From Marsupella aquatica (lineage: Eukaryota; Plantae; Marchantiophyta), in NCBI GenBank assembly GCA_973895155.1, contig OZ316891.1:10107875-10171874 (forward strand): a stretch of DNA of 64,000 nucleotides, written 5' to 3'. Shown here one piece after another: positions 10,621-62,032 of the stretch (the first letter of the stretch is position 1; every line of letters begins with the position of its first letter). The notes under the pieces were generated by a model. It did no database searches. It was not told the origin of the DNA and saw only the letters and a program-made list of their open reading frames with translations. The translations under genes and the position numbers were made by a program.

Positions 10621-11199
10621 AATAAGCACTCCCTATATTGGTACTTAACTCTAGCACCTGGCTATGTTAACTAGGGCACAGACCCACAGATTAAACACAG
10701 TTAAGAGTTGGTGAGGTTAGACTAGTGGAGAGGGGGGTATAACTTTGTGAGAGCACTTCATTGTGCTCATACTCGGAGAGAGAGAGATTTAATATCCATA
10801 TGAGGATACAGATAAACACCCCGAGATAAGTCAAGACTTATTGTAACCCATCTGACATTTCATAGATAAACTCAGGCATATCAGATTTCTCACAGCAGTG
10901 TATACCTTATTGTGCACATCGATGATATGTGAAAAATAGTACAGTCCTTAGCACACTGCTACCGCAGGTTTACTATAACCAGATCAATTGCATAACGGAT
11001 ACGATGAAGCATAGTGATACCTTTCAATCATCAATCCATAGACCAGTTCAAAAGTTTATTCATGACATCACTTAGCATTAGGCAAGCATCGATCGTGCAT
11101 AGACTGCATAAATATCACATATAAATAGCATATAATAGAAGCAACATCAATCCAGGAAATCTAAGTTTCGCTTATGGCATATGTTCCGTGGCTGTTATC

Positions 11200-11584
11200 T
11201 GTTGAGCATAGACGACAATCGCAACGGCAAGCCCATGAACCATCCAACGCACAATAGTCGACACAAGAGATACGTGGTTCACCTCCTTGAGGCTACGTCC
11301 ACGGGAACACACAAGAGAGCTTTACTGAACTCTAAGCCCGTCGGCTATACCGAGTCTCCACAGTGTAAGCTCTCCCTATCTCTCAAGTGGCTCCATAACA
11401 ATGAGCCTTGGTTCTACCTCTCCAAGCACACATGCCTCTTATGATATAGTGTGCAATTTAGTTGTACCTAACCACATAGTTGTACCTAATCACGTAGTTG
11501 TACCTAACCAAATAGTTGTACCAACCCACGTTGTTGTACCAACCACGTCATACCTAACCTAGACGTAAGAGTAAATACCCAACA
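11200..11584 (-). repeat. 3' LTR of the copia element (385 bp)
   Basis: Near-identical to 17222-17624; contains an 18-bp tandem array (TAGTTGTACCTAACCACA-like). Confidence 0.97.
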
Positions 11585-11595
11585 ATCTTCCCCTT
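11585..11595 (-). other. Polypurine tract
   Basis: AAGGGGAAGAT on the minus strand abuts the 3' LTR. Confidence 0.85.
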
Positions 11596-11774
11596 GACTC
11601 TGGTCTAGGGGAGAGTAATACTGCCAATGTATATGATCCCTCAGCGGGAAGTTCTGGACAAAAACCAAACCGGTTTCCCTCTCTAACTAGAGCAAACCAG
11701 AACTAAGTCGTAGCCTAATACATAGGAATGAGGAAGAGCATATATCAGTAATTACAATGAATGTTAAGAAAACT

Positions 11775-14700
11775 CTACTTGTGATGCAATTGCAAAACCT
11801 GCAATACGTCACGGTGTCTAGAGAAACTCTCCAAAGGAATCACTTTGGTAAATGCGTCAGTCGGGTTGAGTTTACCATCAATCTTGACTAGCTCAAACAA
11901 ATTATCAAACACAGCCTGCCTGATAAAATGGTACCTGACGTCAATGTGTTTCACTCTGTTGTCCATCACCTGGTTCACAGCAAGGTGGAGCACACTTTGA
12001 CTATCACAATGGAGCTTCACATTCCCCTGTGGCAATCCCATTTCAGTGATAAGTCTATCCAACCAAATCGCTTCCTTTGCTGCTTCCGCAGCTGCAACAT
12101 ACTCCACTTCTGTAGTAGACTGAGCAATACACTTTTGCAAAGTAGACCTCCAACTTATGCATCCACCGCCAAGTGTGAACATGTAACCTGTTGTTGATCT
12201 CCTTCGGTCCAAATCTTGTCCATAGTCAGAATCAACATAGCCAATCAATGATTTAGCATTCTTTGCATTCGCATCAAATAAAAGACCATGATCCACGGTA
12301 CCCTTCAAGTACCTGATAATCCACTTCACTGCTTCCCAGTGTACCTTCCCTGGATTCGACATGTACCTGCTCACCTTGCCCATAGCCATGGCAAGATCAG
12401 GTCTAGTGCAAGTCATCAAATACATGAGACTCCCCACTGCCTTGTCATACGGAACCTTTGACATCAACCCCTTCTCTGTGTCATCCGTAGGACAGAACGC
12501 TGATGATAACTTGAAGTGTGGAGCCAACGGGGTACTTACTGGCTTGCTATTCCCCATGTTGAACCTTGCAATTACCTTCCTCGCATAACTGCTCTGCGTC
12601 AACCATAGCTTGCCAGCCTCCAAGTCCCTAGTGATCTCCATACCCAAAATCCTCTTAGCTGGCCCTAAGTCCTTCATCTTAAACTCTGCACTAAGCAGTG
12701 CCTTGAGCTTAACAATCTCTGACCTATCCTTGGCTGCAATTAGCATATCATCCACATAAAGTACTAAAACAATGAACCCAAAGACAACATTCTTTACCAG
12801 TTTCAAATACACACAAGGGTCAAATACACTTCTGTGAAAACCTTGTGACCGAATCCAATCGTCAAACCGCTTGTTCCACTGTCTTGGTGACTGCTTCAAC
12901 CCATACAAGGATTTCAGCAATCTGCAAACCAATTCCTCCTGTCCTCTCTTCACAAAACCTAGCGGTTGTCTCATGAAGATCACCTCTTCCAATGTGCCAT
13001 AGAGGAAAGCTGTGACAACATCCATCTGATTTAGCAGCAGACCAAATATTACAACAAGTACACACAATAGTCGTATTGTAGAGTACTTAGCAACTGGTGA
13101 GAAGACCTCATTGTAATCCACACCTTTCTCTTGTGTGAATCCCTTTGCTACCAACCTAGCCTTGTAGACCTTCGATCCACCTCCTATGGAATTATCCTTC
13201 AGCTTGTAAATCCACTTGCTGTCCACCACTTGCTGACCCTTAGGCAGCTTAACAAGCTCCCAAGTTTTGTTGTCCTTTAGTGACTGCATCTCCGTTTGCA
13301 TTGCTGCAGTCCACTTCTGCTTCTCCTTTGAAGCACTTGCCTCATGAAATGAAATTAACGCATCACCCTCATCATCAGCTGTAAAATTATCCTCTTGCAG
13401 TTGAGATGAATCAACCCACTGTCCATACCTTGGTGGAGCGCGTACAGTGCGACCAGATGTTCTTCTAGCCGATGACTCCGGTTGATCTGCGTGTGCTGGT
13501 ACAATTTGAAGCTCAACAGCATCCACTTGCTGCTCACCAGCATCCACAAACTCCTCTGGTTCCTCTAGCACAGGAACCAGCTCCATAATTGGAGCAACTC
13601 CTTCTCTCCGGTCATGCACCTCATAACCAATCTCCCCCTCAACGAGATCCGGGATAGGAGATTTTCCTTTGTCAATACGGGAGACCTGAGTATTCTCCCC
13701 CTCCTTCAATAATCTGGATTCATTGAAGGAAACATCCCTACTGACAACGAGCTTACAGGCAATAGGATCCCATAGCCTATAGGCTTTCACACCACTCTGG
13801 TACCCAAGAAAAACACATTTCTTGGAGGTAGGATCCAACTTGGTCCTATTCTGCTTCGGTGTGAGAGCATATGCATCACTTCCAAAAACTACCAAGCCAT
13901 GATAGTCTGCTTGCCGCTTATAGCGCATCTCAAACGGCGTTTTGAAATTGATAGCACTAGAAGGAGAAAGATTTACCAAATAAGTTGCGGTATTTACAGC
14001 TTCTGCCCAAAATTCTTGTGGTAAACCTGATTGGCTCAACATACTCCGTGACCGCTCCAACAGTGTCCGATTGAGCCTCTTAGTGACACCATTCTGCTGC
14101 GGAGTATAAACTGTGGTGAGATGGCGAGTTATCCCCTGTTCTGAACAGTACTCTTCAAATTCCATTGAAGTGTACTCCCCGCCGTTGTCTGACCTCAGAC
14201 TCTTCACCCTTGTATCCAAATACTTGATCGTGTTTCCAATCTGATTCTCCACCTGGGCCTTCCACTTCTTAAAAATGGACAAGACATCAGACTTATGCGT
14301 CATGAAATAAATCCACACAAATCTTGAGTAATCATCAATAAATGATACATAGTATAACTTTCCAGAGTGTGAGGGAGTCGGGGATGGACCCCACACGTCA
14401 CTATGTATGTACTCAAGAACCGCTTTGGAACGATGAGTTCTAACACCAAAAGCACGACGATGTTGCTTTCCAAGAATGCAATGCTCACAAAACTCTAATT
14501 TACAAGATTGCAAATCAGAAATGAGTCCATTCTTCCGCAAGATAGCCAAACCCTTCTCACTCATGTGGCCTAGCCGTGAATGCCACAGTTGAGTCATCTC
14601 CTCGTGAGACTTGGTTACATTGGCCTCTCCACATACAGTATTGCCCTGTAACACATACAAATTCTTTTGTCTACTCCCCTTCAAAATCACTGTCTCTCCC

Positions 14701-15026
14701 GACCTGACTTGAAGTTCACCATCAATAACGCTCCATTGATGACCATTTGAATCCAACACACCGAGTGAAATCAGATTCTTACGCATGGCAGGTACATACC
14801 TGACTCCGGACACTGTGCGCACAGCGCCATCAAACATTTGAATCTTCACAGACCCAATTCCCTCAATTTGACAAGAGTGATCATTTCCCATCAGAACTGA
14901 ACCGTTTGAAACAGAGTAAGAATTGAAAAACTCACGAATATAACAAATATGAAAAGAGCAAGCACAATCAAGAATTCACACATCATCTGCTCTCTTAGAT
15001 GACGTGCACAGGGCATACCCCCGGCT
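11775..15026 (-). CDS. pol: Copia Pol (protease, integrase, reverse transcriptase, RNase H); protease interrupted by a stop
   Basis: 1038-aa ORF 11775-14891 with LWHSRLGH..CEHC, IHSDVWGP, LRSDNGGEY, YKARLVAKGF, LYVDDML, GYVDSDY and KHIDVRYHF. Its in-frame upstream extension reads DDV*ILDCACSFHIC (protease site). Confidence 0.95.
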
Positions 15027-16067
15027 TCATAAAACATACTCATCATTGAGTAAATCAGCTTCTCCATCAGCCCTAGCCACATTTGCCGATGAAGTTTCCG
15101 CTGCCTTTCCCTTACAGTCTCGCTTGAAGTGTCCAACTTGGTTGCACTTCCAACATGTCACCTGCCTCCTCTGAGGGGATTTACCCTTGGACTTAGATCT
15201 GGATTTAGATCTAAACTGGGTTCTACGGTCCCCAGTTGGTCGCTGCATACTCCTCCCACGGTTAACATTGAGGGCAGCACCAGATGATGAAGGCTGTGAC
15301 GTGATGTGCATCTTTTGCTGAAGATCATCACTAAGCAGAGAACTTACCACGTCATTGTATGAAATGGTATCCCTATCACGATGCAACAACACTCGTGATA
15401 GGGACTGGTAAGATGGAGGCAATGAACTAAGAAGCTGCAGAGCCTTCGTCTCATCATTCAAAGTCTCCCCAAGGTTTTCCAAGTCAACGACCATGTCGTT
15501 GAAAGCATCCACATGGTCTTGCAACTTCGTACCGGATTCCTTCATCCTGAAACTCATCAGTTTGTAGGAAGTGTAGAGCCGGTTCGACAACCCCTTGCGG
15601 TGATACTTGCTCTGCAATTCCGCAAACAAGGACATGCAATCTTTATGTGCACCCAACTGCTTGATGATGGGAGGCATGAGATAGAGTGTAACACACCACA
15701 CTCCTTGCTCCTGCATGCGGTCCCATTTTTTCTCATCAACATCGTCTTCACGAGGGCTCAGCAGTTGGCCCATCCCTGACGCATAGAGCACTCCCTTCAC
15801 CTGCTTCTCCCATAGCAAGTAGTCAGAGCGCCCATCATACTTTGTCACTTCATACTTGGGTCCCCCAAGCTTGAAAGTCCCCATCTTCTTCTTTGGCACT
15901 ACCGTGAGCTCCGGTAGTAGTACTGCTTCCTCCACCACACGCTGCACCGATGATGGTATCGGTGTCACGTGCTCTTCCTTCTGCTCCTCTCTCTGCCCCT
16001 GAAACCTCCGCGGTGATCCTCGTGCTTCAAGTTCCACGTCTTCGAAAAACTCCTCCGAATCACTCAT
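15027..16067 (-). CDS. gag: Copia Gag with CCHC zinc knuckle
   Basis: KYDGRSDYLLW, LLSSLPPSY and CWKCNQVGHFKRDC. Confidence 0.93.
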   Translation of the reverse strand: MSDSEEFFEDVELEARGSPRRFQGQREEQKEEHVTPIPSSVQRVVEEAVLLPELTVVPKKKMGTFKLGGPKYEVTKYDGRSDYLLWEKQVKGVLYASGMGQLLSPREDDVDEKKWDRMQEQGVWCVTLYLMPPIIKQLGAHKDCMSLFAELQSKYHRKGLSNRLYTSYKLMSFRMKESGTKLQDHVDAFNDMVVDLENLGETLNDETKALQLLSSLPPSYQSLSRVLLHRDRDTISYNDVVSSLLSDDLQQKMHITSQPSSSGAALNVNRGRSMQRPTGDRRTQFRSKSRSKSKGKSPQRRQVTCWKCNQVGHFKRDCKGKAAETSSANVARADGEADLLNDEYVL

Positions 16068-17207
16068 ATGAGAAAATCACAAAAAATATTGTTTTTCACA
16101 ACTTCTCAAAAAACTCGAAACTCAACACCGCCGCGTAGCCCACAAAGCTAGGAGTCCAATACTGAAAACCGAAATCAAAATCAAAATTTGACAGAAAAGT
16201 TATTCAAATTTCAGTCGAGGTGGGTAAAACCTTAGGAAACTCCCCCGTTTTGACCACCTCAGGGAATAACCAAAATACCAAGTACAACCCGTTGTCGGAA
16301 TTGCGATGTGATTGGTGCGCCGCGTTGCCAACTTCAATGGCTACAACCTCGCCGAAAAATAACCAAAAAAGTTACCGTTCGGCGGATGAAATCTTTGTCG
16401 GACGGTCAAAAAATAGCTCTCTGGTTTTTTGGAATATTCTATGACCCTTGTACAGGCCCTGTGGGAATTTTGGAAGAACAATCGAGGGGCTGACATGTGT
16501 CCTCGAACCCCCAAAACCCCCTACCACCCTTCGTCGTCGAAATCTGGTCGCGCGCGCAGAAAATACACACGGCAGAATGTACCCCTCGACACCAAACGCA
16601 AGATATCTCACTCGGGTTTTGACGAAATCAAGATCTGATTTCAGATTTGGAAACTAGACTCCGAGGCGGTGAAGATCGATATAAGAAGCACCCAAAACGA
16701 GGAAAGAACGAGGAAGAAAAAAATTGGTAAAGATGACAGATTTCTCTCAATTGCCATAACCAATTTCGAATCAGTTTTTCAAAGAGAAAAAAATGGTACC
16801 TTGTCAACAAGGAATGTTGATCAATTGCACTTGGTGCCGTCACCAAGTCCAACAAGGTAATTGATTTTGCTTAGCCTTCCTCTTTGCATCAAAGAGCCAA
16901 TCCCGGACTCAAAACAATCGTCTTGCCTCAATCTCTCCGTTGAGTCAAAACACTTGACGCTTCTCCCTCCGAGTCGATTGCCAACTTTCTTCACAAAATC
17001 CAGAACGACAAAAACTTAGATCTCTATGCACCACGAGCTCCGTTCAATGATTTCTTCACACCGTTAGAAAGCTCTTGCCCTGATCTATCCGTTGAGCCCA
17101 TAAACTCCAAGTTCCATGCGACGGAACTCTGGGAAATCCACCGACACTCAACGCTGGAAAAAACCGTCATGAAATCCTGTCACGAACATACGTCACCTCC
17201 CAAGCAT

Positions 17208-17219
17208 GCTCTGATACCA
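17208..17219 (-). other. Primer binding site for initiator tRNA-Met
   Basis: TGGTATCAGAGC on the minus strand, 2 nt from the 5' LTR. Confidence 0.93.
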
Positions 17220-17221
17220 AT

Positions 17222-17624
17222 TGTTGAGCATAGACGATGATCGCAACGGCAAGCCAATGAACCATCCAACGCATAATAGTCGACACAAGAGATACGTGGT
17301 TCACCTCCTTGAGGCTACGTCCACGGGAACACACAAGAGAGCTTTACTGAACTCTAAGCCCGTCGGCTATACCGAGTCTCCACAGTGTAAGCTCTCCCTA
17401 TCTCTCAAGTGGCTCCATAACAATGAGCCTTGGTTCTACCTCTCCAAGCACACATGCCTCTTATGATATAGTGTGCAACTTAGTTGTACCTAACCACATA
17501 GTTGTACCTAATCACGTAGTTGTACCTAACCACATAGTTGTACCTAACCACGTAGTTGTACCAACCCACATTGTTGTACCAACCACGTCATACCTAACCT
17601 AGACGTAAGAGTGAATACCCAACA
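17222..17624 (-). repeat. 5' LTR of the copia element (403 bp)
   Basis: Matches 11200-11584 with a few substitutions and one extra 18-bp unit. Confidence 0.97.
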
Positions 17625-17746: not shown

Positions 17747-17923
17747 ACCATCACCTTTCTCCAGGGATCGACAGACGATATCGATCCAAAACCTCAATGT
17801 CTTCGTTCAGCCCCCGCCATTGAGATGAAATCAAGTAATTATTCCACTTGACTTCTGATCCCACGTTTCTGCATCAATTTGTCCAGAGAGCTGCGGGGAG
17901 ACGTGGTCCGAAGAAAGGCTAGC
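17747..17923. ncRNA. Candidate structured RNA motif, copy A (unassigned family)
   Basis: ACCATCA...stems GGATCGA/TCGATCC, CTCAATG/CATTGAG, GAAATCAAGT/ACTTGACTTC, CCACGTTTC/GAGACGTGG; pseudoknot CCCCGC/GCGGGG; ends AGGCTAGC. Confidence 0.6.
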
Positions 17924-19079
17924 TGTGGCATTTAGGACTTAAGAACTATATTTTCAATTTTTAATGCATAAGGAAACAGCGTAAAGCAGAGAACAGAGGT
18001 GTTGAGATATAATAGTCTTTTTGCACCTGATCCTGGTTACCCATGTGCGTAGTCTCCTGGTGAGCAATTGGTCAGGACCTGAATGTTCGTGCACAATCCC
18101 ACAACGCTTTCTTGCTCCTTGTTTGTTCCTCTGGCTCCCCGCTTCCCAAGCATCGACAATCTACCGTGTGCTGCCAGTTTCAGTGGACGTCGTGCTTTGT
18201 GTGATCTTTAGTGGCAGTGCTATTGCTGGCGGCTTAGATGTATTTTTGGCCCACTTTTAGGTTTGCTGCAGTCCTTGGTATCCATGGACGGTGGTGATGT
18301 TTTTGATCTGATGGGTATCACCATTTTGTCTGTTAGCGACCAGAATGTATCGCATGGGATAGACTGTATTTATATGGGATACATATTGCCTGTGTATTTG
18401 GACTTATTTACTTGGGCCGTTCGTACTTGTTTGTGTATTGTCCCACGGGGTCATGGTCATTTTTCTCCTGTCCAGCCATTCCTGGGTATTCTCCCCATAA
18501 TCTTATGAGAGAGAGAGAGAGATAATTTCATAAGAAGAACACCCATTCAAGGATAATGTCAACTCTGGACTAAATCATAGCTAGCATAAGCGAAGTCTGG
18601 AAAGTGTCGAGCATGGTAACGAATAATATCTCTTTAAATACCCACATACCGAGTCATTCACATTATCTGGTTATACTATCGATAGACATTTTATCACGAA
18701 TTAGTCATGGATTGCAGTCATGAACAAATCCAAGTCTTGTCGCAGCACATTGTTACTAAAGATATGGTCAACACACATAAAGATATCGTAGGCTAGGTAG
18801 TGTTAAAATCAAAGTTAAAGTTGGTAGTCGAACCAGGACACAGTTGTGAATGAGAAAAAAACCCGTCATTGTAGCAGACATCTAGTTACTAGAAGTGCAT
18901 GTGTAGTTTGGCCTGTGCACAACATGTAAGGCTGCGATAATATGCTTATGTTGAGAGAGGTGAATAACGATGGGACTAGGCCGAGGGTATAATCCTTGCC
19001 AGACGCAGGGTGTGGAAAGTCGTATGCATAGTGTTGAGGGAAAAAACAATTTTTGTTGAATGTCGGCGATCGAGTGAGA

Positions 19080-19422
19080 TGTTGAGCACAGACAACACTC
19101 GTAACTGTAAGCACATGACACATCCACTGCGCAAGTAGTCGACACAAGAGATACGTGGTTCACCTCCTCGAGGCTACATCCACGGGAACACATAAGAGAG
19201 CTTTACTGAACTCTAAGCTCGTCGACCATACCAAGTCTCCACAATGTAAGCTCTCCTCATCTCTCAAGTGGCTCCATAACAATGAGCCTAAGTTCCATTT
19301 ATCCAAGCAAACACCGCTTGGCATATAGTGTGCATCCTAGTTAACCTAACCACGTCTCCGACTACGGTTAGTCTAATTACGGTTACATGTCGTAACCCTA
19401 GACCTTGAGTAAATACCTAACA
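19080..19422 (-). mobile_element. Solo LTR of a copia subfamily related to the 11.2-17.6 kb element
   Basis: TGTTGAGCA...AAATACCTAACA shares long blocks with the LTRs (TAGTCGACACAAGAGATACGTGGTTCACCTCCT); TSD TGAGA at 19075-19079 and 19423-19427. Confidence 0.93.
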
Positions 19423-19562
19423 TGAGAGTGATCACAGTAAAAGCCACGGTTAGTAATCGACATATATTGAGAAGGTAGCATTGCAAGGACTTGTGTAATC
19501 CGGGATGAATCCAGGATATCTATGCGGTACCTCATCACAGTCAGTCAATCTGCGTGAAGTTG

Positions 19563-19740
19563 ACCATCAACTAGGGTTGGGATGCAGGAGACATTATCTG
19601 CATTACATACCCCAGGGTCATCGTTCAGCCCCCGTCCTTGGGGCGGGATCAAAAATCATTTTCATTTAATCCCTGTCCCATGTTTCTACTACCTGTAGCC
19701 GTGGCGGTAACGGGGAGACATGGACCAACACTAGGCTAGC
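19563..19740. ncRNA. Candidate structured RNA motif, copy B
   Basis: ACCATCA...stems ATGCAG/CTGCAT, CCCCAGGG/CCTTGGGG, GGGATCAAA/TTTAATCCC, CCATGTTTC/GAGACATGG; pseudoknot CCCCGT/ACGGGG; ends AGGCTAGC. Confidence 0.6.
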
Positions 19741-20769
19741 CGGTATTGCATAATTGCTTGTGGAAATCATCAATTATTCATGTATGAAATAAGAAAATGT
19801 GGTCTGTTTACACATACCTATCCTGCACGTGCCATGTTGAGAGTATCTTCGATCGTTGTGGTAGGCAGCCTGCGTCTCTTGTCAGAAGGGTTTCACTGGT
19901 GTGTGTGTGTGCCACGATCCTCTGCAACATAGGCCTGGGCATGGCACTCGTGCTGCTAGCTGTGGGGTGATTGTCGTTCCTACTGCCCTTAGGAGATGGG
20001 GGTAGAGAGAGAGATATGTTAAAGAGACGACACCCATTCAAGGCCAAGTCAATACTTTACATTGACAAGTCACATAAAAAGTCACGGCATCATAGGTCAG
20101 GGCAGGGAGATAGCAACACATGGATGAGCACATACACCAAGTCCTTCGCAAGTAGATAGATTAACATAATAATACAGCCTGACCATTATGAGGGAGGAAA
20201 CAGGTCCGAGACTTGTTGAGGTCAATATTTACACTGTAGCTATATCCTAGCATGAGTCAAAGATCAGTAAACGCATAAGAACAGTATGTTACACTATAGC
20301 GTCCCCAGTCATGGGTGGAGCACAATAAAGTATGAAAGGAATCGGGTGAAAAAAGGAAGGGATTTAATAAGTACAAGGTCTAACAAAAAGACGCAGGAGT
20401 ATAGATCAAGGACTGAAAAGTCATAAAGCAGAAAAGCCTAGTAAGAAGCTGTCAGTACCTATATACATGAGCAGTATAGATAAAGCAACACTTATTGTAG
20501 ACAAAAAATTAGTGCAAAAAGGACAGGTTTTCAAAGAGGATATTTATAGGATATGGCATGGAACGCATAAAAAGTCAGAACACAGTATGGTAAAGTCGGA
20601 CATGTGCAAGGTAATAGGATTGATGATACTATTTTATAAAAAACATATATGAACAATTCCGGTGTCACAGCAAAGGTGCCATTAGATGGTGCAGGAAAAA
20701 ACCCTTAGTATAAAAAGGGAGATATACTAGGCGGTGCTTCATATAAGCTGGTCAGGCAAATTGAAGTAA

Positions 20770-20943
20770 ACCATCAACTGAAATTAAAGAGCAGTGGACA
20801 CAAACTGCAATACATCCCCGAGGTCGTCATTCAGCCCCCGTCCCCAGGGTGAATCAAGATTCTCAAAAAATGATTCTTGTTGTATGTTTCTGCTACCATT
20901 GAACCGGCGGTAACGGGGAGACGTACATTAATTTCAGGCTAGC
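20770..20943. ncRNA. Candidate structured RNA motif, copy C
   Basis: ACCATCA...stems GCAGT/ACTGC, imperfect CCCCGAGG/CCCCAGGG, GAATCA/TGATTC, TGTATGTTTC/GAGACGTACA; pseudoknot CCCCGT/ACGGGG; ends AGGCTAGC. Confidence 0.58.

Positions 20944-21682: not shown

Positions 21683-21686
<4 letters not shown>

Positions 21687-21722
<36 letters not shown>
21687..21722. repeat. (GA)n microsatellite
   Basis: Pure GA run. Confidence 0.95.
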
Positions 21723-21724
<2 letters not shown>

Positions 21725-22469
21725 CACTCATACTTAGAGCAGCTTGTTAGCCTAGACTATGAGAGATGTATGGTGTTAGCGAGTGATTTATTTATTCTCT
21801 TGACAATGGATATAGCCTAGACAAGGTCATACACATGTCTTTGTGTTAGTGTCGATTGATATTATAAACCTGTTTGATTTGACGTTGTGCTGTCAAATAT
21901 TGTCTCAACACCTTGTAACATTTGCTTATGCCCACCATGTAGGATAGATACCCACCATATCTGAATGAGCCTGTCACACCATTCTAGACAGCATTAGAGT
22001 ATATCATGTTGTCTAGGTTTATATGTTTTGTATGTGTGTTATATGAGCCGATAGAGTTCAATTCATGTTTGAGAGAGATAGTTATCCCTTTGTTGTGGGT
22101 CAAAGGCCTCACTTCTTTGATGTTGAGCCTTTGAGCATGACCTCTGGCGGCTATGGTGTGGCTGACCAGTTTTGTGTATACGTAACGTAGATTCCTCAAA
22201 GTGCGAGGTGCATTTGGCTCGATATCTATATGTGATCGTTCCGGATGGGATTGGATGTTTGATTGGTGTCGATCGTGGTTTGGTTGTATTGAGATTATTG
22301 TGGGTTTTGGACATGTGTGGACATGAGTTCCACTTGCAGCCCATTCTCTTATGTTTGTTTGTGCTCATGTTTGTATATGTGTGACATGCGATGTATGTTG
22401 CGTAACGATGTGTATGCACATAACAAGCCTCAAGTTCTTGTATAGCCAACTCTAGCTGTTTTGATTCAT

Positions 22470-23220
22470 TATACGGCCCAGATTTAATTTAAGAGAATAC
22501 TAAGCCCAAAGTTCTTGTAAAATCAGCAACAGCCATTTCCATGCATTATAGAGTCTAGATTAATTTAATCTTAGAGGGAATAATTAGCTCTAGATCTCTT
22601 GAAAAACTAACTACAACCAGTTCCACTCATCATAGAGCATAGGTTTAATAGTAGTGGGAAGGAAAAGCCCCTTCCTTGTAAAGAAAACTGCACGGTCCAT
22701 TAACACTCATTATAGTGTCCAGATTTGAAGGGAGATGGAATTTAAAAACACATATCCTTGTAAAGCTGTTTGCACCATTTCCACTCATTGTAGTGTCCTT
22801 CTTAATCTTAGATGGAATGGAAAGGTAGAGTTCTTGTAAATCCACCCCGGGCCCTTGAATCTTCCACTCATTATCATTGAACACTATAATATTTGAGACC
22901 GCCCATTCAGGCCAATCCTCTGTTTACGAGATGTCAATGTCATTTGGGCGGGGAAGAAATCCTGGCCGTTCGCTGGAAAAATGTGTTTGTGGTTGCCATA
23001 GATCGACCGGCCAGAAACATTTCCCCACGTATCCTCGCCCTTTGCGACTTGCCTTACCATCCATACCTTACCCTAGCTAATTCTGCTACGCAAAGGCATT
23101 GGGCTAGTAAGATCCAATGGGCTTGTAAGAAGCAATTCAATCTAATTTAGAGGGATTAAAAACCTGAGTCCTTGTAAACTAATGGCAGCCGTTACCATTT
23201 AATCTTAGAGTAAATTAAAC
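22470..23220. repeat. Dispersed repeat family member (CCAGATTTAAT / GTTCTTGTAAA motifs), MITE-like
   Basis: The same motifs recur at 27600-29420 in both orientations. Confidence 0.5.
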
Positions 23221-27629: not shown

Positions 27630-28170
27630 ATTGTGTCACCTTTCTTTTATGGAAGTTAGGGTAGCTTTACAAGAAGTTTGGTCATTACTTTCATTTATTA
27701 GTGCTGAATTAAAATCTGGACAATATAATGAGTGTATGGGTTTGCCCATCCCTCAATCTACTTGACCAATTCAAAGCTTTAGCTGAGTAGAGCAAAGGTT
27801 GTTTTACGATAAATGTGTCACCTTTGTCTCTCCTCTGGAAGGTAGGGTGGCTTTACAAGAAGTCTGGTCATTGCTTCCTTTATTCAGGCTGGGATAAAAT
27901 CTGGACCTTAAACTGAGTATATGTGTTTGTCCATCCCTCAATCTACTTGGGCAAAATCATATCTTTAGCTCAATAGAGCTTTACAATCCATGGTCACCTT
28001 TTTCCTCTGGAAGTTAGGGTGCCTTACACTACATTTGGTCACTGCTTCCATTTTTATTCCCACTGAGAAATCTGGGCATTATAACGAGCATGTGTGTTTG
28101 CCCATCCCTCAATTACATTATACAAAATCAAATCTTTAGCTCAAGCAAGCAAAGGATGGCTTTAGGATAC
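27630..28170. repeat. Three tandem ~170-180 bp diverged repeats
   Basis: gtcacctt..tggaag.taggg..cttaca..tggtca..aaatctgg..tttgcccatccctcaat occurs three times. Confidence 0.85.
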
Positions 28171-28279
28171 AGTAATGTCGCTTTTGACTTCTTGTTCTAA
28201 CTATAACACTCTAGATCAAAAACCTTTTGAAATGAACTTCAATAAATACAAATACTTGAAAGGAGTAAAATTTTGGAAA

Positions 28280-29420
28280 TGTTTGTACCACCTGTTGTAG
28301 GTGGTCTAAAATTCTAAGCAGAATGGCATTTCCTTCCCACTGCTTGCCATGTAGGATGGGAGGATTGGAAGACACCATACCTGAATTGGCCTGCTCGTTA
28401 TTATCAAACCAACTTAAGCCTATCGCAGTTGTTGTCCAATCCAGATTTAATCATAGAGGGAATAAAACAAAGCAATTGGCATGTTGGATGAATTGAGCCC
28501 ATACCAGTAATGGCCCCAAATGCTTACCATATAGAATAGTAGGGAACACACCAGTATTGGCCCCCCAAAGCTTACATTTACTGAAAGGGCATGTAGAATG
28601 CCAGCTGGAGCCATTTCCACTCAATATAAAATCTAGGTTTAATCTCACAGAGAATAGAAAGAAACTCCAATTTCCCTGGGCCCACTACTGGCCAAGTAGG
28701 GTCCCATACACTAAGCCTGAATGGGCCCCATTTCCTTGGGCCCACTGCCTTCCACTTAGGATCGTTAGACACCATACTGGCATGGGCCCCAAATGCTTGC
28801 CAGGTAGGATTGGTAGAAACCATCTGATTGGGTATGCGCCTCAAGTACTTGTGAAGGCAGTTTCCATTAAAGAAATGGTCCAGATTTGGCGTCCGAGTGA
28901 ATAAAATGAAGCACCAATGAGCTCATTTTGGGCCCACTACTTGCCATGTAGGATCCATAGACACCATATCTCTATGCCCCCCTCCCCGCAAGTTCTTGTA
29001 AAACCAATTGGAGCCAATTCCACTCCATTATACCATCCAAGGTTTATGCCATCCGAGTTCAATCTCAGAGGGAAAGAAAAGAAGCAATGGGACCCTATTT
29101 TTTGGGGCACACCACTTACCATCAAGCATCTGTTTACACCATATCAATAGCGCTCCCCCCCCCCCCCCCCCCCCAATGTCTTGTATAGTCACTCTTAAAC
29201 CCTAACAAAATAAACCCTTCCATGTTAGCAATTACTTTATAATTTGGGCCCACTCCGCATTTTCTTGGGCCCACTTGCCATGCCTTACTTGGGCCCTCTG
29301 CTGGCCATGGAGGATGCTTAGACACCATACCGGTAAGTGCCCCCCTAGTTCCTGTAAAGCCTGGAGCCGTTTGCCCTCATTATACGGTCCAGATTTGATC
29401 TCAATGCCGGGTTCACTATT
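28280..29420. repeat. Array of diverged repeats rich in GGGCCCA / CCAGATTT motifs (same family as 22470-23220 and 9180-9340)
   Basis: Recurrent gggcccact(a/g)c..cca.gtaggat...gacaccata; the reverse complement matches 9225-9265. Confidence 0.6.
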
Positions 29421-47900: not shown

Positions 47901-49051
47901 ATTGTGAAAAACAGCACAGGGCAGGCGGAAGGAAACAACTCAGACTGCATTCTCAAGCCAGTCTTCTCTTGCCCCGACCCAATTCGTGGTGGCGACAGCG
48001 TACTGGTCCTCTGCGAAGTTCTGACTCCGGATGGAAAGCCGCATCCCACCAACACACGGCGCAAGGTGGTGGACCTTCTGTCCGATGAGGTCTTGGCGCA
48101 AGAAACCTTGTTCGGGTTTGAGCAGGAATATACCATGTTCGCCAAGAGCGGCCAGCCTTACGGGTGGCCCGAGAGCGGCTACCCTGCTCCCCAAGGCCCT
48201 TTCTACTGCGGTGTTGGTCTGGAAGCTGTTTACGGTAGACCCGTCGTCGAAGCTCATTTGGATGCCTGCGTCAAGGTGAGCACTCCGCCCACTTCGCTGT
48301 CTGAATGACTATTTCATGACTGCTAAAAGCAAGGAATTTACTGATATTCAATTTTTTTCTGGTTTAAGTTTTTCCTTCTGTCATAACGGCTTCTATAAAA
48401 TTCCCAGTGCATTCTCCTGTTTTTGATTTGAGCAGTGAGGATTTGATGACTTTCTGTGTCTCATGCTTATGTCGCTTATTCTGGTTAGAAGACTAACAAT
48501 TATCCCGTGAGTGGGTGTGAACAACCAAACAGGCAGGGTTGATGATCAGCGGCATCAACGCAGAAGTGATGCCCGGGCAGTGGGAGTTCCAGATCGGCCC
48601 AGCAGGGCCTCTGCAGGTGGGGGATCATGTCATGATCGCCCGTTACCTGCTCCACCGGTTAGGTGAGGACTTTGGAATCATTTCCACATTTGAGCCAAAG
48701 CCCATGCAAGGAGACTGGAATGGAGCTGGTGCCCACACCAACTATTCCACCAAAGCTATGCGAGAGGAGGGTGGAATGGAGGCCATATTGGCGGCCATTA
48801 AGAAGCTATCTATGAAGCACCCAGAGCACATTGCTGAGTATGGTATTGGTAATGAGAAGCGTCTGACAGGTAAGCATGAGACGGCCAACATGAATACCTT
48901 CAAGTACGGTGTTGCGGATCGTGGTGCTTCCATCCGAATCCCCCTCCCCGTGCAACTGGCCAACAAAGGCTACTTGGAAGACCGAAGGCCTGCAGCCAAT
49001 GTAGACCCATATGTGGTTACTAGGATGCTCATCCAAACCACATTGTGCTAA
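44903..49051 (+). CDS. Plastid-targeted glutamine synthetase, eubacterial-type GSII (GSIIB); exons 44903-45052, 45996-46082, 46294-46466, 47915-48275, 48533-49051
   Basis: [83 protein letters not shown] and [15 protein letters not shown]; Ser/Ala-rich transit peptide; GT-AG introns keep the frame. Confidence 0.95.
47018..47170. repeat. 39-bp period tandem repeat (about 4 copies) inside GS intron 3
   Basis: Units of gtgatccc...gtga..ggtcg.gca..gg. Confidence 0.8.
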
Positions 49052-61707: not shown

Positions 61708-61779
61708 GCCTCCGTAGCATAGTGGTATTGCGTTCCCTTCGTAAGGGAAAGGTCGAGAGTTCGATCCTCTCCGTGGGCT
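61708..61779 (+). tRNA. tRNA-Thr (anticodon CGT)
   Basis: 72-nt cloverleaf: anticodon arm TTCCC-TTCGTAA-GGGAA, T arm GAGAG-TTCGATC-CTCTC, D loop TAGTGGT; one acceptor-stem mismatch. Confidence 0.9.
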
Positions 61780-62032
61780 CTTCCTTTGCAATTAAGTATT
61801 TAAATTTGGATACTTTTTACTGGTTGCGAAGGGACTTTCTTCTCTTTCCGTTACATTCCTAGTAAAAGGCGATACGATTAAGTATGTAGGATTCTTCACG
61901 TTCGTCGGTGATGTGATCCCTTACGACGTACACTTTCTTCATATTCCTCTGGGTGGAGCTGAATCTAGGGAGAGACGAGCTCATTTTCGTTTTGGGTGCC
62001 GAACATATTTTCTGCGGGTGGGTTACTTCGAA

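Follow-up and report, generated by a model that had tools for sequence, protein, structure and literature searches.

Structured RNA repeats of the liverwort Marsupella aquatica as a likely hammerhead ribozyme with a rewired core

Three repeat units bounded by (AG)n runs

The window, that is, the whole 64-kb stretch of DNA that was analysed, belongs to a leafy liverwort, Marsupella aquatica, and holds three repeats of a structured RNA (copies A, B and C) in an array with the following features:

17747..17923, minus strand: structured RNA, copy A; predicted cut 17900/17899, G12 at 17869, C3 at 17810
19563..19740, minus strand: structured RNA, copy B; predicted cut 19717/19716, G12 at 19686, C3 at 19628
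20770..20943, minus strand: structured RNA, copy C; predicted cut 20920/20919, G12 at 20890, C3 at 20834
10776..10865, plus strand: junction J0, (AG)6 and a diverged shared unit end; marks the left edge of the array
18507..18562, plus strand: junction J1, (AG)8 and the shared unit end (CACCCATTCAAGG box)
20004..20090, plus strand: junction J2, (AG)5 and the shared unit end
21686..21722, plus strand: junction J3, (AG)18, no shared end; marks the right edge of the array
11200..17624, minus strand: Ty1/Copia LTR retrotransposon inside unit A, target duplication TTATC
19080..19422, minus strand: solo LTR of a related Copia family inside unit B, target duplication TGAGA

Each copy lies within a head-to-tail unit of 1.1-1.7 kb that is bounded by (AG)n and has a shared end, and the three copies are bracketed by four of the window's five (AG)5+ runs, all on the same strand. 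At this one locus, the three units between four (AG)n runs have variable 5' parts of ~ 580, 260 and 740 nt. The end at J0, which the Copia insertion separates from copy A, resembles the end at J2 (z 4.5; 0 of 200 shuffles); the similarity of the J1 end was not significant. The Copia element is unrelated to the motif, and paralogous contigs are without the solo LTR of unit B. The spacers could not be aligned between units, and sliding-window folding revealed no second structured element in them. The unit between predicted cut sites (1203 nt) folded no better than its shuffles (-269 vs. -271 +/- 7 kcal/mol, eight shuffles), and an inverted repeat around J1 was not significant (z -1.3). Around the array, no protein family was found at the cut-off in 78 frames of at least 75 aa, nor was a reverse transcriptase or GIY-YIG endonuclease frame found near the units.

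A conserved fold in diverged copies

The coordinates of the copies, their lengths (177, 178 and 174 nt), the order of their parts and the stems quoted in the first-pass annotation were all found in the sequence. The loop word TCRTTCAGCCCCCG occurs exactly three times in the window, at copies A, B and C (shuffles gave 0.41 matches even with two mismatches allowed), and neither nhmmer nor a covariance model, whose best other match reached 8.6 bits, detected a fourth copy in the 64 kb. The palindrome GCUAGC opens each of the three copies, and per-column identity across them is ~ 74% outside the kept core letters.

The shared architecture is a five-helix junction with a pseudoknot. In the minus-strand alignment, 89.7% of 146 cells are paired and 18 of 50 pairs are changed on both sides; none of 500 shuffles matched either value, and registers slid along the alignment were only 38-52% paired, controls that are inflated by the small number of related sequences (n = 3) from which the structure itself was derived, although the gap is still large. 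The plus-strand alignment is 86.3% paired, with both-side changes in 19 of 50 pairs. The closing helix P0 (10 bp, seven pairs changed on both sides) had been missed by the first-pass annotation, as had an invariant 4-bp terminal helix that is possible on the minus strand. Covariation of the pseudoknot, which had also been claimed, holds for one of its six pairs, but the other five are invariant among the three copies. Fold-energy z values are modest (-2.9 for copy A on the minus strand, -2.5 for B and -2.1 for C on the plus strand). The RNA fold is almost certainly real, and the earlier suggestion of selection on a fold with conserved single-stranded cores, as in ribozymes, is supported.

Which of the two strands is functional? 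Among the pairs of the hand-drawn helices, with two invariant core contacts left out, 134 are Watson-Crick, eight are G-U on the minus strand, three are G-U on the plus strand and one is of another kind. Because of this ratio of 8 to 3, the functional strand is very probably the minus strand; the previous reading of G-U pairs in favour of the plus strand did not hold, and the plus strand, on which the motif was originally described, probably has no function. At 19667, 19677 and 19723, the states common among paralogs form wobble pairs on the minus strand only. Free energy prefers the plus strand in copies B and C, and the three G-U pairs also favour it. The idea of splice signals is weak, the would-be donors differing between copies (GTCTAT, GTCAAC and GTTTAC).

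A probable hammerhead core on the minus strand

On the minus strand, the RNA carries GUC^UCCCC, GAAAC and GGGGG-CUGAANGA together with hammerhead stems I and III. When tested against descriptions of type-SGC hammerheads, the core blocks follow the order S-G-C, with an interaction stem around block C. The corresponding parts of copy B, including two further hairpins that are discussed below, are as follows:

19710..19724, minus strand: block S; 5' strand of stem III, GUC triplet and UCCCC(GU) of stem I
19677..19687, minus strand: block G; extra A, GAAA and 3' strand of stem III
19610..19643, minus strand: hairpin P2; equivalent of the SGC interaction stem, with block C in its loop
19688..19711, minus strand: hairpin P4b; proposed stem II, which opens with G10.1-Y11.1 and runs straight on from stem I
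19582..19603, minus strand: hairpin P1; invariant loop GUC (19590-19592), a possible partner of the GAC after A9

Block C reads RC-GGGGG-CUGAANGA-N-GA. A relaxed hammerhead descriptor, allowing any block order on either strand, matched only copies A and B in the 64 kb, both in the order S-G-C on the minus strand; copy C, whose stem III has one A.C mismatch, was added if one stem III mismatch was allowed. In 40 shuffled windows, the same descriptor gave a mean of 0.575 matches, or 0.025 at the observed stem lengths. When only unpaired letters were shuffled and the helices were kept, the core arose anywhere in 524 (A), 14 (B) and 107 (C) of 150,000 trials, and the probability of the core letters at that exact junction is near 1e-6. 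GAAAC and GUC, with A15.1-U16.1 and an NUH cut site, are present in all three copies. Stem I has 5-7 bp and stem III 6-7 bp, three pairs of the latter being changed on both sides.

The core also departs from the known pattern. The place of CUGANGA after stem I is taken in all copies by CUGAANGA, one base longer owing to an extra A after A6, and an additional A precedes G12. No stem II links A9 to G12: the nucleotides following A9 form no pairs with those that precede G12. None of the three copies fits the published type-SGC descriptor (CGAAA, CUGAUGA(U)G, a linker no longer than 8 nt and, between blocks G and C, a stem II of 2-6 bp), from which they differ in CUGAANGA vs. CUGANGA, in AGAAA vs. 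CGAAA and in a linker of 22-23 nt vs. at most 8. An A6a insertion and a very short stem II are known in natural hammerheads, as the available text of Perreault et al. (2011, PMC3088659) describes. Cleavage does occur in natural hammerheads that carry an A6a insertion or whose stem II is a single pair, in the one A6a case slowly and with only low activity; for the extra base before G12, no precedent was met in the literature read on natural core variants.

Since all core words are present on one strand in scrambled order, the repeats are likely a rewired hammerhead ribozyme. Judged from the sequence, the core is very likely hammerhead-related, and measurable self-cleavage at the GUC site is predicted as somewhat more likely than not. 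Catalysis would most simply account for the joint retention of C17, A15.1-U16.1, G12 and CUGA across diverged copies.

Searches in databases and literature

The comparison with Rfam that the first-pass annotation had proposed gave the motif no match to any known family: with Rfam 15, only a tRNA-Thr was found in the window, and the best E-values at or near the copies were 1.1 and 2.6. The description of the motif as unassigned is correct in this respect but fails with regard to the hammerhead core blocks, stems I and III and the S-G-C order on the minus strand, the hammerhead being absent from the families that the annotation had considered. The core words of telomerase RNA, RNase P/MRP, the twister, HDV, hairpin and VS ribozymes, the cobalamin and ZTP riboswitches and C/D snoRNA are absent, in agreement with Rfam.

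Pattern scans returned 0 and 29 loci in viral contigs, three in metagenomes and two in prokaryote genomes, with no homolog among them: none of the 34 loci outside plants passed the core descriptor, and a covariance model matched only the search word of 17-20 nt. Nothing was found in two whole genomes behind these loci or in phage records; the viral, metagenome, prokaryote and phage collections scanned hold almost no bryophyte DNA. In the open literature, we found no paper on this motif or on an SGC hammerhead in a plant genome, and the term 'type-SGC' occurs in one paper only.

Paralogs in the host

Public DNA runs contain tens of further copies. In all four paralogous contigs compared, divergence is lower in the motif than in the flank (7.9 vs. 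15.8, 9.0 vs. 19.4, 10.8 vs. 14.8 and 13.5 vs. 16.9%, by subtraction). Among the variants listed for B-like paralogs (40 of 57), 20 of 26 core or kiss positions are without a variant, and none was found at A13-C15.2 or G16.2-C17 among those listed. Within the P2 loop, these paralogs vary most at N7 and N9a. Paired, although unphased, changes occur at 19645/19673, 19678/19723 and 19634/19711. Changes at G8 (7-14% of paralog depth), G10.1 (up to 36%) and G12 (4-13%) were also found, and the paralogs that carry them may be dead copies. Copy B has private transitions at 19638, 19688 and 19702 relative to most B-like paralogs; at 19702, T>C in 74-93% of B-like depth makes the P4b loop of most of them the self-complementary GCCGCGGC. 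There is no step in the summed depth of contigs at the predicted cut (19716/19717), and none of the loose ends listed lies there. A few contigs have A-rich loose ends after GCTAGC.

Discussion

Comparison with known hammerheads

Non-circularly permuted type-SGC hammerheads were described in 2023 from metatranscriptomes only, in no genome of a known organism, and according to the available text (Eckert, Friedrich, Weinberg and Weinberg 2023, PMC10085705) they have an optional hairpin after stem III and an interaction stem enclosing block C, often with CUGAUGA-U-GAC. As in the HRIMA-1 and SGC variants presented there, the liverwort motif has the S-G-C order, a pseudoknot stem I, stem III around the S-to-G segment, the optional hairpin and interaction stem, stem I letters invariant within the family and, as in many variants, an extra base after A9 followed by GAC. 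Unlike the SGC forms in that text, it has an extra A after A6 and before G12, no stem II between blocks C and G, a hairpin of 22-23 nt where the SGC linker has 1-3 nt, the additional P0, P1 and terminal helix (175 nt vs. at most 104) and the nature of a multicopy nuclear repeat. Six words of the motif were sought in the supplement of PMC10085705, and none is present there. With the canonical hammerheads I-III, as far as the text of PMC3088659 describes them, the motif shares CUGA..GA, GAAA, the GUC triplet, A15.1-U16.1 and a variable N7, whereas its non-circular order, its block C off stem II and the lack of any score by an Rfam hammerhead model set it apart.

A possible wiring of the core

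We propose that the minus-strand fold is a hammerhead-type self-cleaving ribozyme with a rewired core, which would cut 24 nt into the motif, just after GUC. Stem III (P4a) and the pseudoknot (stem I) would unite C17, G12 and the CUGA turn, and P4b would replace stem II, with a G-C opening right after stem I and an end one base before GAAA. P4b was returned unprompted by RNAalifold on the minus strand; 88.9% of the cells of its six pairs are paired, with one both-side and two one-side changes. Block C, detached from stem II, would be held by P2 and perhaps also by a short kissing contact (GAC/GUC) with the P1 loop, whose GUC is the only one common to the three copies besides the cut site and is retained in a paralog with a different P1 stem (loose end at 19601). 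P0 could clamp both cleavage products. As stem II, P4b competes with a 7-bp stem I because G10.1 and position 10.2 also pair, and covary, in the pseudoknot; a five-way-junction switch may exist in which the 7-bp stem I is the off state and a 5-bp stem I with stem II the on state. This full model, an active hammerhead of new topology with a stem II hairpin from the substrate strand, a free CUGA fourth block clamped by P2 and the loop-loop kiss, and the switch, is put forward tentatively.

The carrier element

Chlamys/Naiad Penelope-like elements, as described in the available text of Craig et al. (2021, PMC8557442), are biased towards microsatellites, show 5' truncation and form non-autonomous arrays of head-to-tail copies; they are without canonical hammerheads, and some have half cores. 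Like non-autonomous Chlamys such as MRC1 in that text, the units studied here lie head to tail between microsatellites, share a 3' end and vary in 5' length. Their target is (AG)n/(CT)n vs. the (CA)n, (C)n and (TA)n named there, and, unlike Chlamys/Naiad elements, they have no reverse transcriptase or endonuclease frame. The main text of PMC8557442 makes no mention of liverworts, and the motif shares no words with its consensuses except three chance GTCTCCCCG matches.

Plant LTR and animal non-LTR retrozymes are likewise non-coding hammerhead repeats in tandems of two to four, at distances of several hundred to a thousand bases. According to the available text of PMC4918200 and PMC7761336, they combine type III or I ribozymes and near-identical repeats with a primer site, 4-bp target duplications and circles that are strongly self-paired; in contrast, the spacers here are unalignable and the 1203-nt unit folds as shuffles do. 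A plant LTR retrozyme, which would have direct repeats of 300-400 bp with a primer site and a 4-bp target duplication, was rejected: the spacers of the units do not align with each other, and the bases after TGGT differ in all three copies. A retrozyme of either type was rejected for want of a strongly self-paired monomer in the one unit folded. By analogy, a Penelope-like element is a somewhat favoured candidate for the carrier. The combined model, a rewired minus-strand hammerhead carried by a non-autonomous, microsatellite-targeting Penelope-like retroelement, seems fairly plausible; its role would be to excise element RNA from read-through or tandem transcripts ahead of reverse transcription.

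Alternative explanations

The fold could derive from or mimic a hammerhead without cutting itself, serving as a scaffold for a protein or reverse transcriptase, or could cut as a dimer or with a helper protein. The two core insertions, the missing link between A9 and stem II and the predicted cut without a depth step are consistent with this. So are the palindromic start of all copies and the self-complementary P4b loop of most B-like paralogs, and minimal Penelope hammerheads are poor cleavers that act as dimers. We nevertheless consider this explanation unlikely, given that C17, A15.1-U16.1, G12 and CUGA are jointly kept in copies that are otherwise ~ 74% alike. Less probable again is a functional plus-strand RNA of a new riboswitch-like or small non-coding class, retroposed with A-rich tails, in which the hammerhead words of the minus strand would be due to chance. 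Copies B and C do fold better on the plus strand, P4 is extended there by GUUUC/GAGAC, and GCTAGC is followed by A-rich loose ends in a few contigs; however, the G-U tally and the wobble states of paralogs point to the minus strand, no more than 0.35% of the shuffles that keep the helices produce the core, and the letters of GUUUC/GAGAC never covary, as would be expected of core bases and not of a plain stem.

The CT runs 260-740 nt upstream of each copy on the minus strand, and the UAG before and GU after the motif, would suit tandem host non-coding genes with CT-rich promoters, in which host selection would maintain the motif as a structured cassette exon or as a processing signal. This is improbable: a shared box that is present after J0, J1 and J2 and missing after J3 suits the conserved 3' ends of three insertions and not promoters ahead of three genes, the donor sites are weak and unlike each other, and the private transitions of copy B are typical of a decaying repeat. 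The 3' end of a Helitron consists of a hairpin followed by CTAG, and on the plus strand the motif ends in CTAG ~ 10 nt past a hairpin arm. That the structure acts at the level of single-stranded DNA, for example as the 3' end of a Helitron, is nonetheless highly improbable, since C and not T follows CTAG in all three copies and the wobble asymmetry, pseudoknot and ribozyme core indicate RNA.

Implications

Even without cutting, the motif is a well-conserved, uncatalogued RNA fold, and it provides a directly testable construct of 175 nt with a predicted cut site. According to the available text of PMC10085705, the discoverers of SGC hammerheads, a form described solely in environmental RNA and DNA, assumed that CUGANGA stays joined to stem II and that the three core blocks are uninterrupted; a P4b that grows from stem I as stem II would be a new wiring. 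If a multicopy nuclear hammerhead of a plant does break this assumption, the scope of the best-studied small ribozyme would be widened, and the reports from descriptors and Rfam of no hammerhead in whole Penelope-like groups would be accounted for; the repeats would also mark an unannotated mobile family in liverworts. Under the tentative full model with its new topology, they would be the first case of a non-circularly permuted hammerhead in the nuclear genome of a land plant and would supply the ribozyme that is missing from plant Penelope-like elements.

Fold and conservation of the three motif copies

The three copies of the structured RNA motif lie in the sequence where the first-pass annotation had placed them:

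17747-17923, copy A
19563-19740, copy B
20770-20943, copy C

RNAalifold and pair counts across the three copies revealed a five-helix junction (closing helix P0 and helices P1, P2, P3 and P4) with a loop-loop pseudoknot. P0, the strongest helix, with 7 of its 10 pairs changed on both sides among the copies, had been overlooked in that annotation. In the three-copy alignment, both-side pair changes numbered 18 of 50 on the minus strand and 19 of 50 on the plus strand; none of 500 shuffles matched these counts, and slid registers were 32-52% paired, although these controls rest on three related sequences, so that significance is overstated, while related copies in public DNA runs (paralogs) add support. 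Searches of the window and the copies gave no Rfam match for the motif, and no fourth copy was detected in the 64-kb window with nhmmer and a covariance model. The motif fold is real, conserved and uncatalogued.

A multicopy family in public DNA

Between 62 and 68% of the region's words were present in each of four public sequencing runs, one of which may come from the same material as the window, and the summed contig depth (80% likeness) was highest on the three motifs and the box adjoining the AG runs. Alignment to copy B alone yielded 78, 82, 22 and 16 contigs in the four runs, with one variant letter common to up to 23 contigs. The motif family comprises tens of loci; no closer figure is given because summed depth does not count copies. 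The motif was less diverged than its flank, 1.25 to 2.2 fold, in all four contigs common to the region-wide and copy-B alignments; in one of them the two values were nearly equal (13.5% for the motif and 16.9% for the flank). This contig, together with the private transitions that copy B carries relative to most B-like paralogs, indicates that single copies also decay, like transposon copies. The motif ends GCUAGC and UGAUGGU (minus strand; 19563-19570 and 19735-19740 in copy B) are invariant in all three copies and can pair as a 4-bp helix including two G-U pairs; paralog similarity stops there.

A hammerhead-like core and the strand that carries it

On the minus strand, all three copies contain, in this order, GUC followed by UCCCC, then GAAAC, then GGGGG-CUGAANGA-N-GAC. 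In hammerhead numbering, P4a would then serve as stem III, carrying A15.1-U16.1, while stem I would be formed by the pseudoknot. In the window, a relaxed hammerhead descriptor permitting any block order matched copies A and B alone; these matches lie on the minus strand in the order S-G-C (the blocks with the predicted GUC cut site, GAAA and the CUGA strand), and copy C also matched once one mismatch was allowed. Helix-keeping shuffles contained the core anywhere in 524, 14 and 107 of 150,000 cases for copies A, B and C, a result that counts once, the copies being related. Among the paralogs, variation in the loop is concentrated at N7 and the extra base after A9; 20 of the 26 core or kiss positions are without a listed variant (40 of 57 rows), and G8, G10.1 and G12 vary in a minority. 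Several observations count against the ribozyme reading. The motif departs from the hammerhead core at three points; in the contigs aligned to copy B there was no depth step at the predicted cut, and none of the loose ends listed falls at it; and no homologs outside the liverwort lineage were found in viral, metagenome, prokaryote and phage collections, which hold almost no bryophyte DNA.

Is the motif functional on the minus or the plus strand? Hand-drawn helices, with two invariant core contacts omitted since they cancel, gave 134 Watson-Crick pairs, 8 G-U pairs on the minus strand, 3 on the plus strand and 1 other. At 19667, 19677 and 19723, letters frequent among the paralogs give wobble pairs on the minus strand only; those at 19638 and 19633 favour the plus strand. 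Folding z-scores were split, strongly minus for copy A and slightly plus for copies B and C, and the constrained-model energies (minus/plus) were -64.3/-46.6 kcal/mol for copy A, -54.0/-57.2 kcal/mol for copy B and -46.2/-45.8 kcal/mol for copy C. The functional strand is very probably the minus strand, a judgement that draws in part on the hammerhead-like core.

Proposed wiring of the core

The P4b hairpin (19688-19711 in copy B), was predicted unprompted on the minus strand by RNAalifold. Its first pair, G-C (G-U in copy B), directly adjoins the five-pair stem I, and a single base separates its end from GAAA; among the three copies, one of its pairs has changed on both sides, and two more have changed on one side. 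P4b would act as stem II, joined to the substrate strand rather than to A9. The GUC in the P1 loop is, the predicted cut site apart, the only invariant partner of the GAC after A9 in the three copies, and a paralog whose P1 stem differs has kept it too. These two triplets, whose letters never vary, may form a kissing contact. P4b can form its first two pairs only at the cost of the two outer pairs of the pseudoknot, which likewise covary, so the model makes switching between two states possible. In most B-like paralogs the P4b loop (19698-19705) contains GCCGCGGC, which is self-complementary, and in many C-like paralogs an inserted CG at 20904 creates CCGCGG; copy A has no such sequence. A loop of this kind could serve in dimerisation.

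Probable carrier element and neighbouring features

With the Copia insertion set aside, four of the five (AG)5+ runs in the 64 kb flank the three copies, on a single strand. Each of the first three runs is followed by a shared end that is missing after the last; of the three pairwise comparisons between these ends, two were significant (0 of 200 shuffles in both). The AG runs and the shared end thus delimit three units, arranged head to tail and about 1.29, 1.13 and 1.67 kb long; these boundaries, like the carrier reading, rest on one locus. Read on the putative ribozyme strand, the units have their conserved end at the 3' side and 5' parts of unequal length; no protein is encoded in them, as judged by the frames around the array. 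Chlamys and Naiad elements, which are described as being without canonical hammerheads, are reported to favour microsatellites, to be truncated at the 5' end and to form non-autonomous arrays in head-to-tail order (Craig et al. 2021, PMC8557442); LINEs targeting TC are also on record (PMC3812793). Unlike retrozyme circles as described in PMC4918200 and PMC7761336, the units are not self-paired (folding of one unit versus shuffles). An inverted repeat surrounds the J1 AG run (18480-18545); its folding is not significant.

Other elements in the window

11200-17624, minus strand, full Copia element whose gag and pol frames are open, beside copy A
19080-19422, minus strand, diverged solo LTR, beside copy B
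22400-22900 and 27640-29400, short tandem repeats that have diverged, with periods of about 77 and 171-190 nt
48539-49051, glutamine synthetase exon, closest to bryophyte and green-algal proteins
61708-61780, tRNA-Thr(CGU) gene

Measured to the minus-strand 3' end of the neighbouring motif copy (A and B, respectively), the Copia element and the solo LTR both lie ~120-140 nt away; their target duplications differ, and they are independent insertions. The similar distance may reflect target preference or chance. The tandem repeats look like one family. Frame identity of the glutamine synthetase is 96% with a Calypogeia fissa protein and 88% with Marchantia and Riccia, pointing to a leafy liverwort; this frame and the full Copia element place the window in a land plant.

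Comparison with known hammerheads

Type-SGC hammerheads were described and validated by Eckert et al. 2023 (PMC10085705), who found none in any genome from a known organism. The optional hairpin after stem III and the interaction stem around block C described there occupy exactly the places of liverwort P3 and P2. Against the SGC descriptor in that paper, the liverwort motif has an extra A after A6, AGAAA in place of CGAAA, and a 22-23 nt hairpin where the descriptor has a short linker; a stem II joining A9 to G12 is absent. For natural hammerheads, Perreault et al. 2011 (PMC3088659) report both low activity of an A6a insertion and one-pair stems II. Given the shared layout and the four descriptor failures, the motif is constructed like an SGC hammerhead, yet outside the published SGC definition. 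On balance, and with some reserve, we consider the motif most likely to be an SGC-like hammerhead with a rewired core, carried by a Penelope-like repeat that is non-autonomous and belongs to a liverwort.
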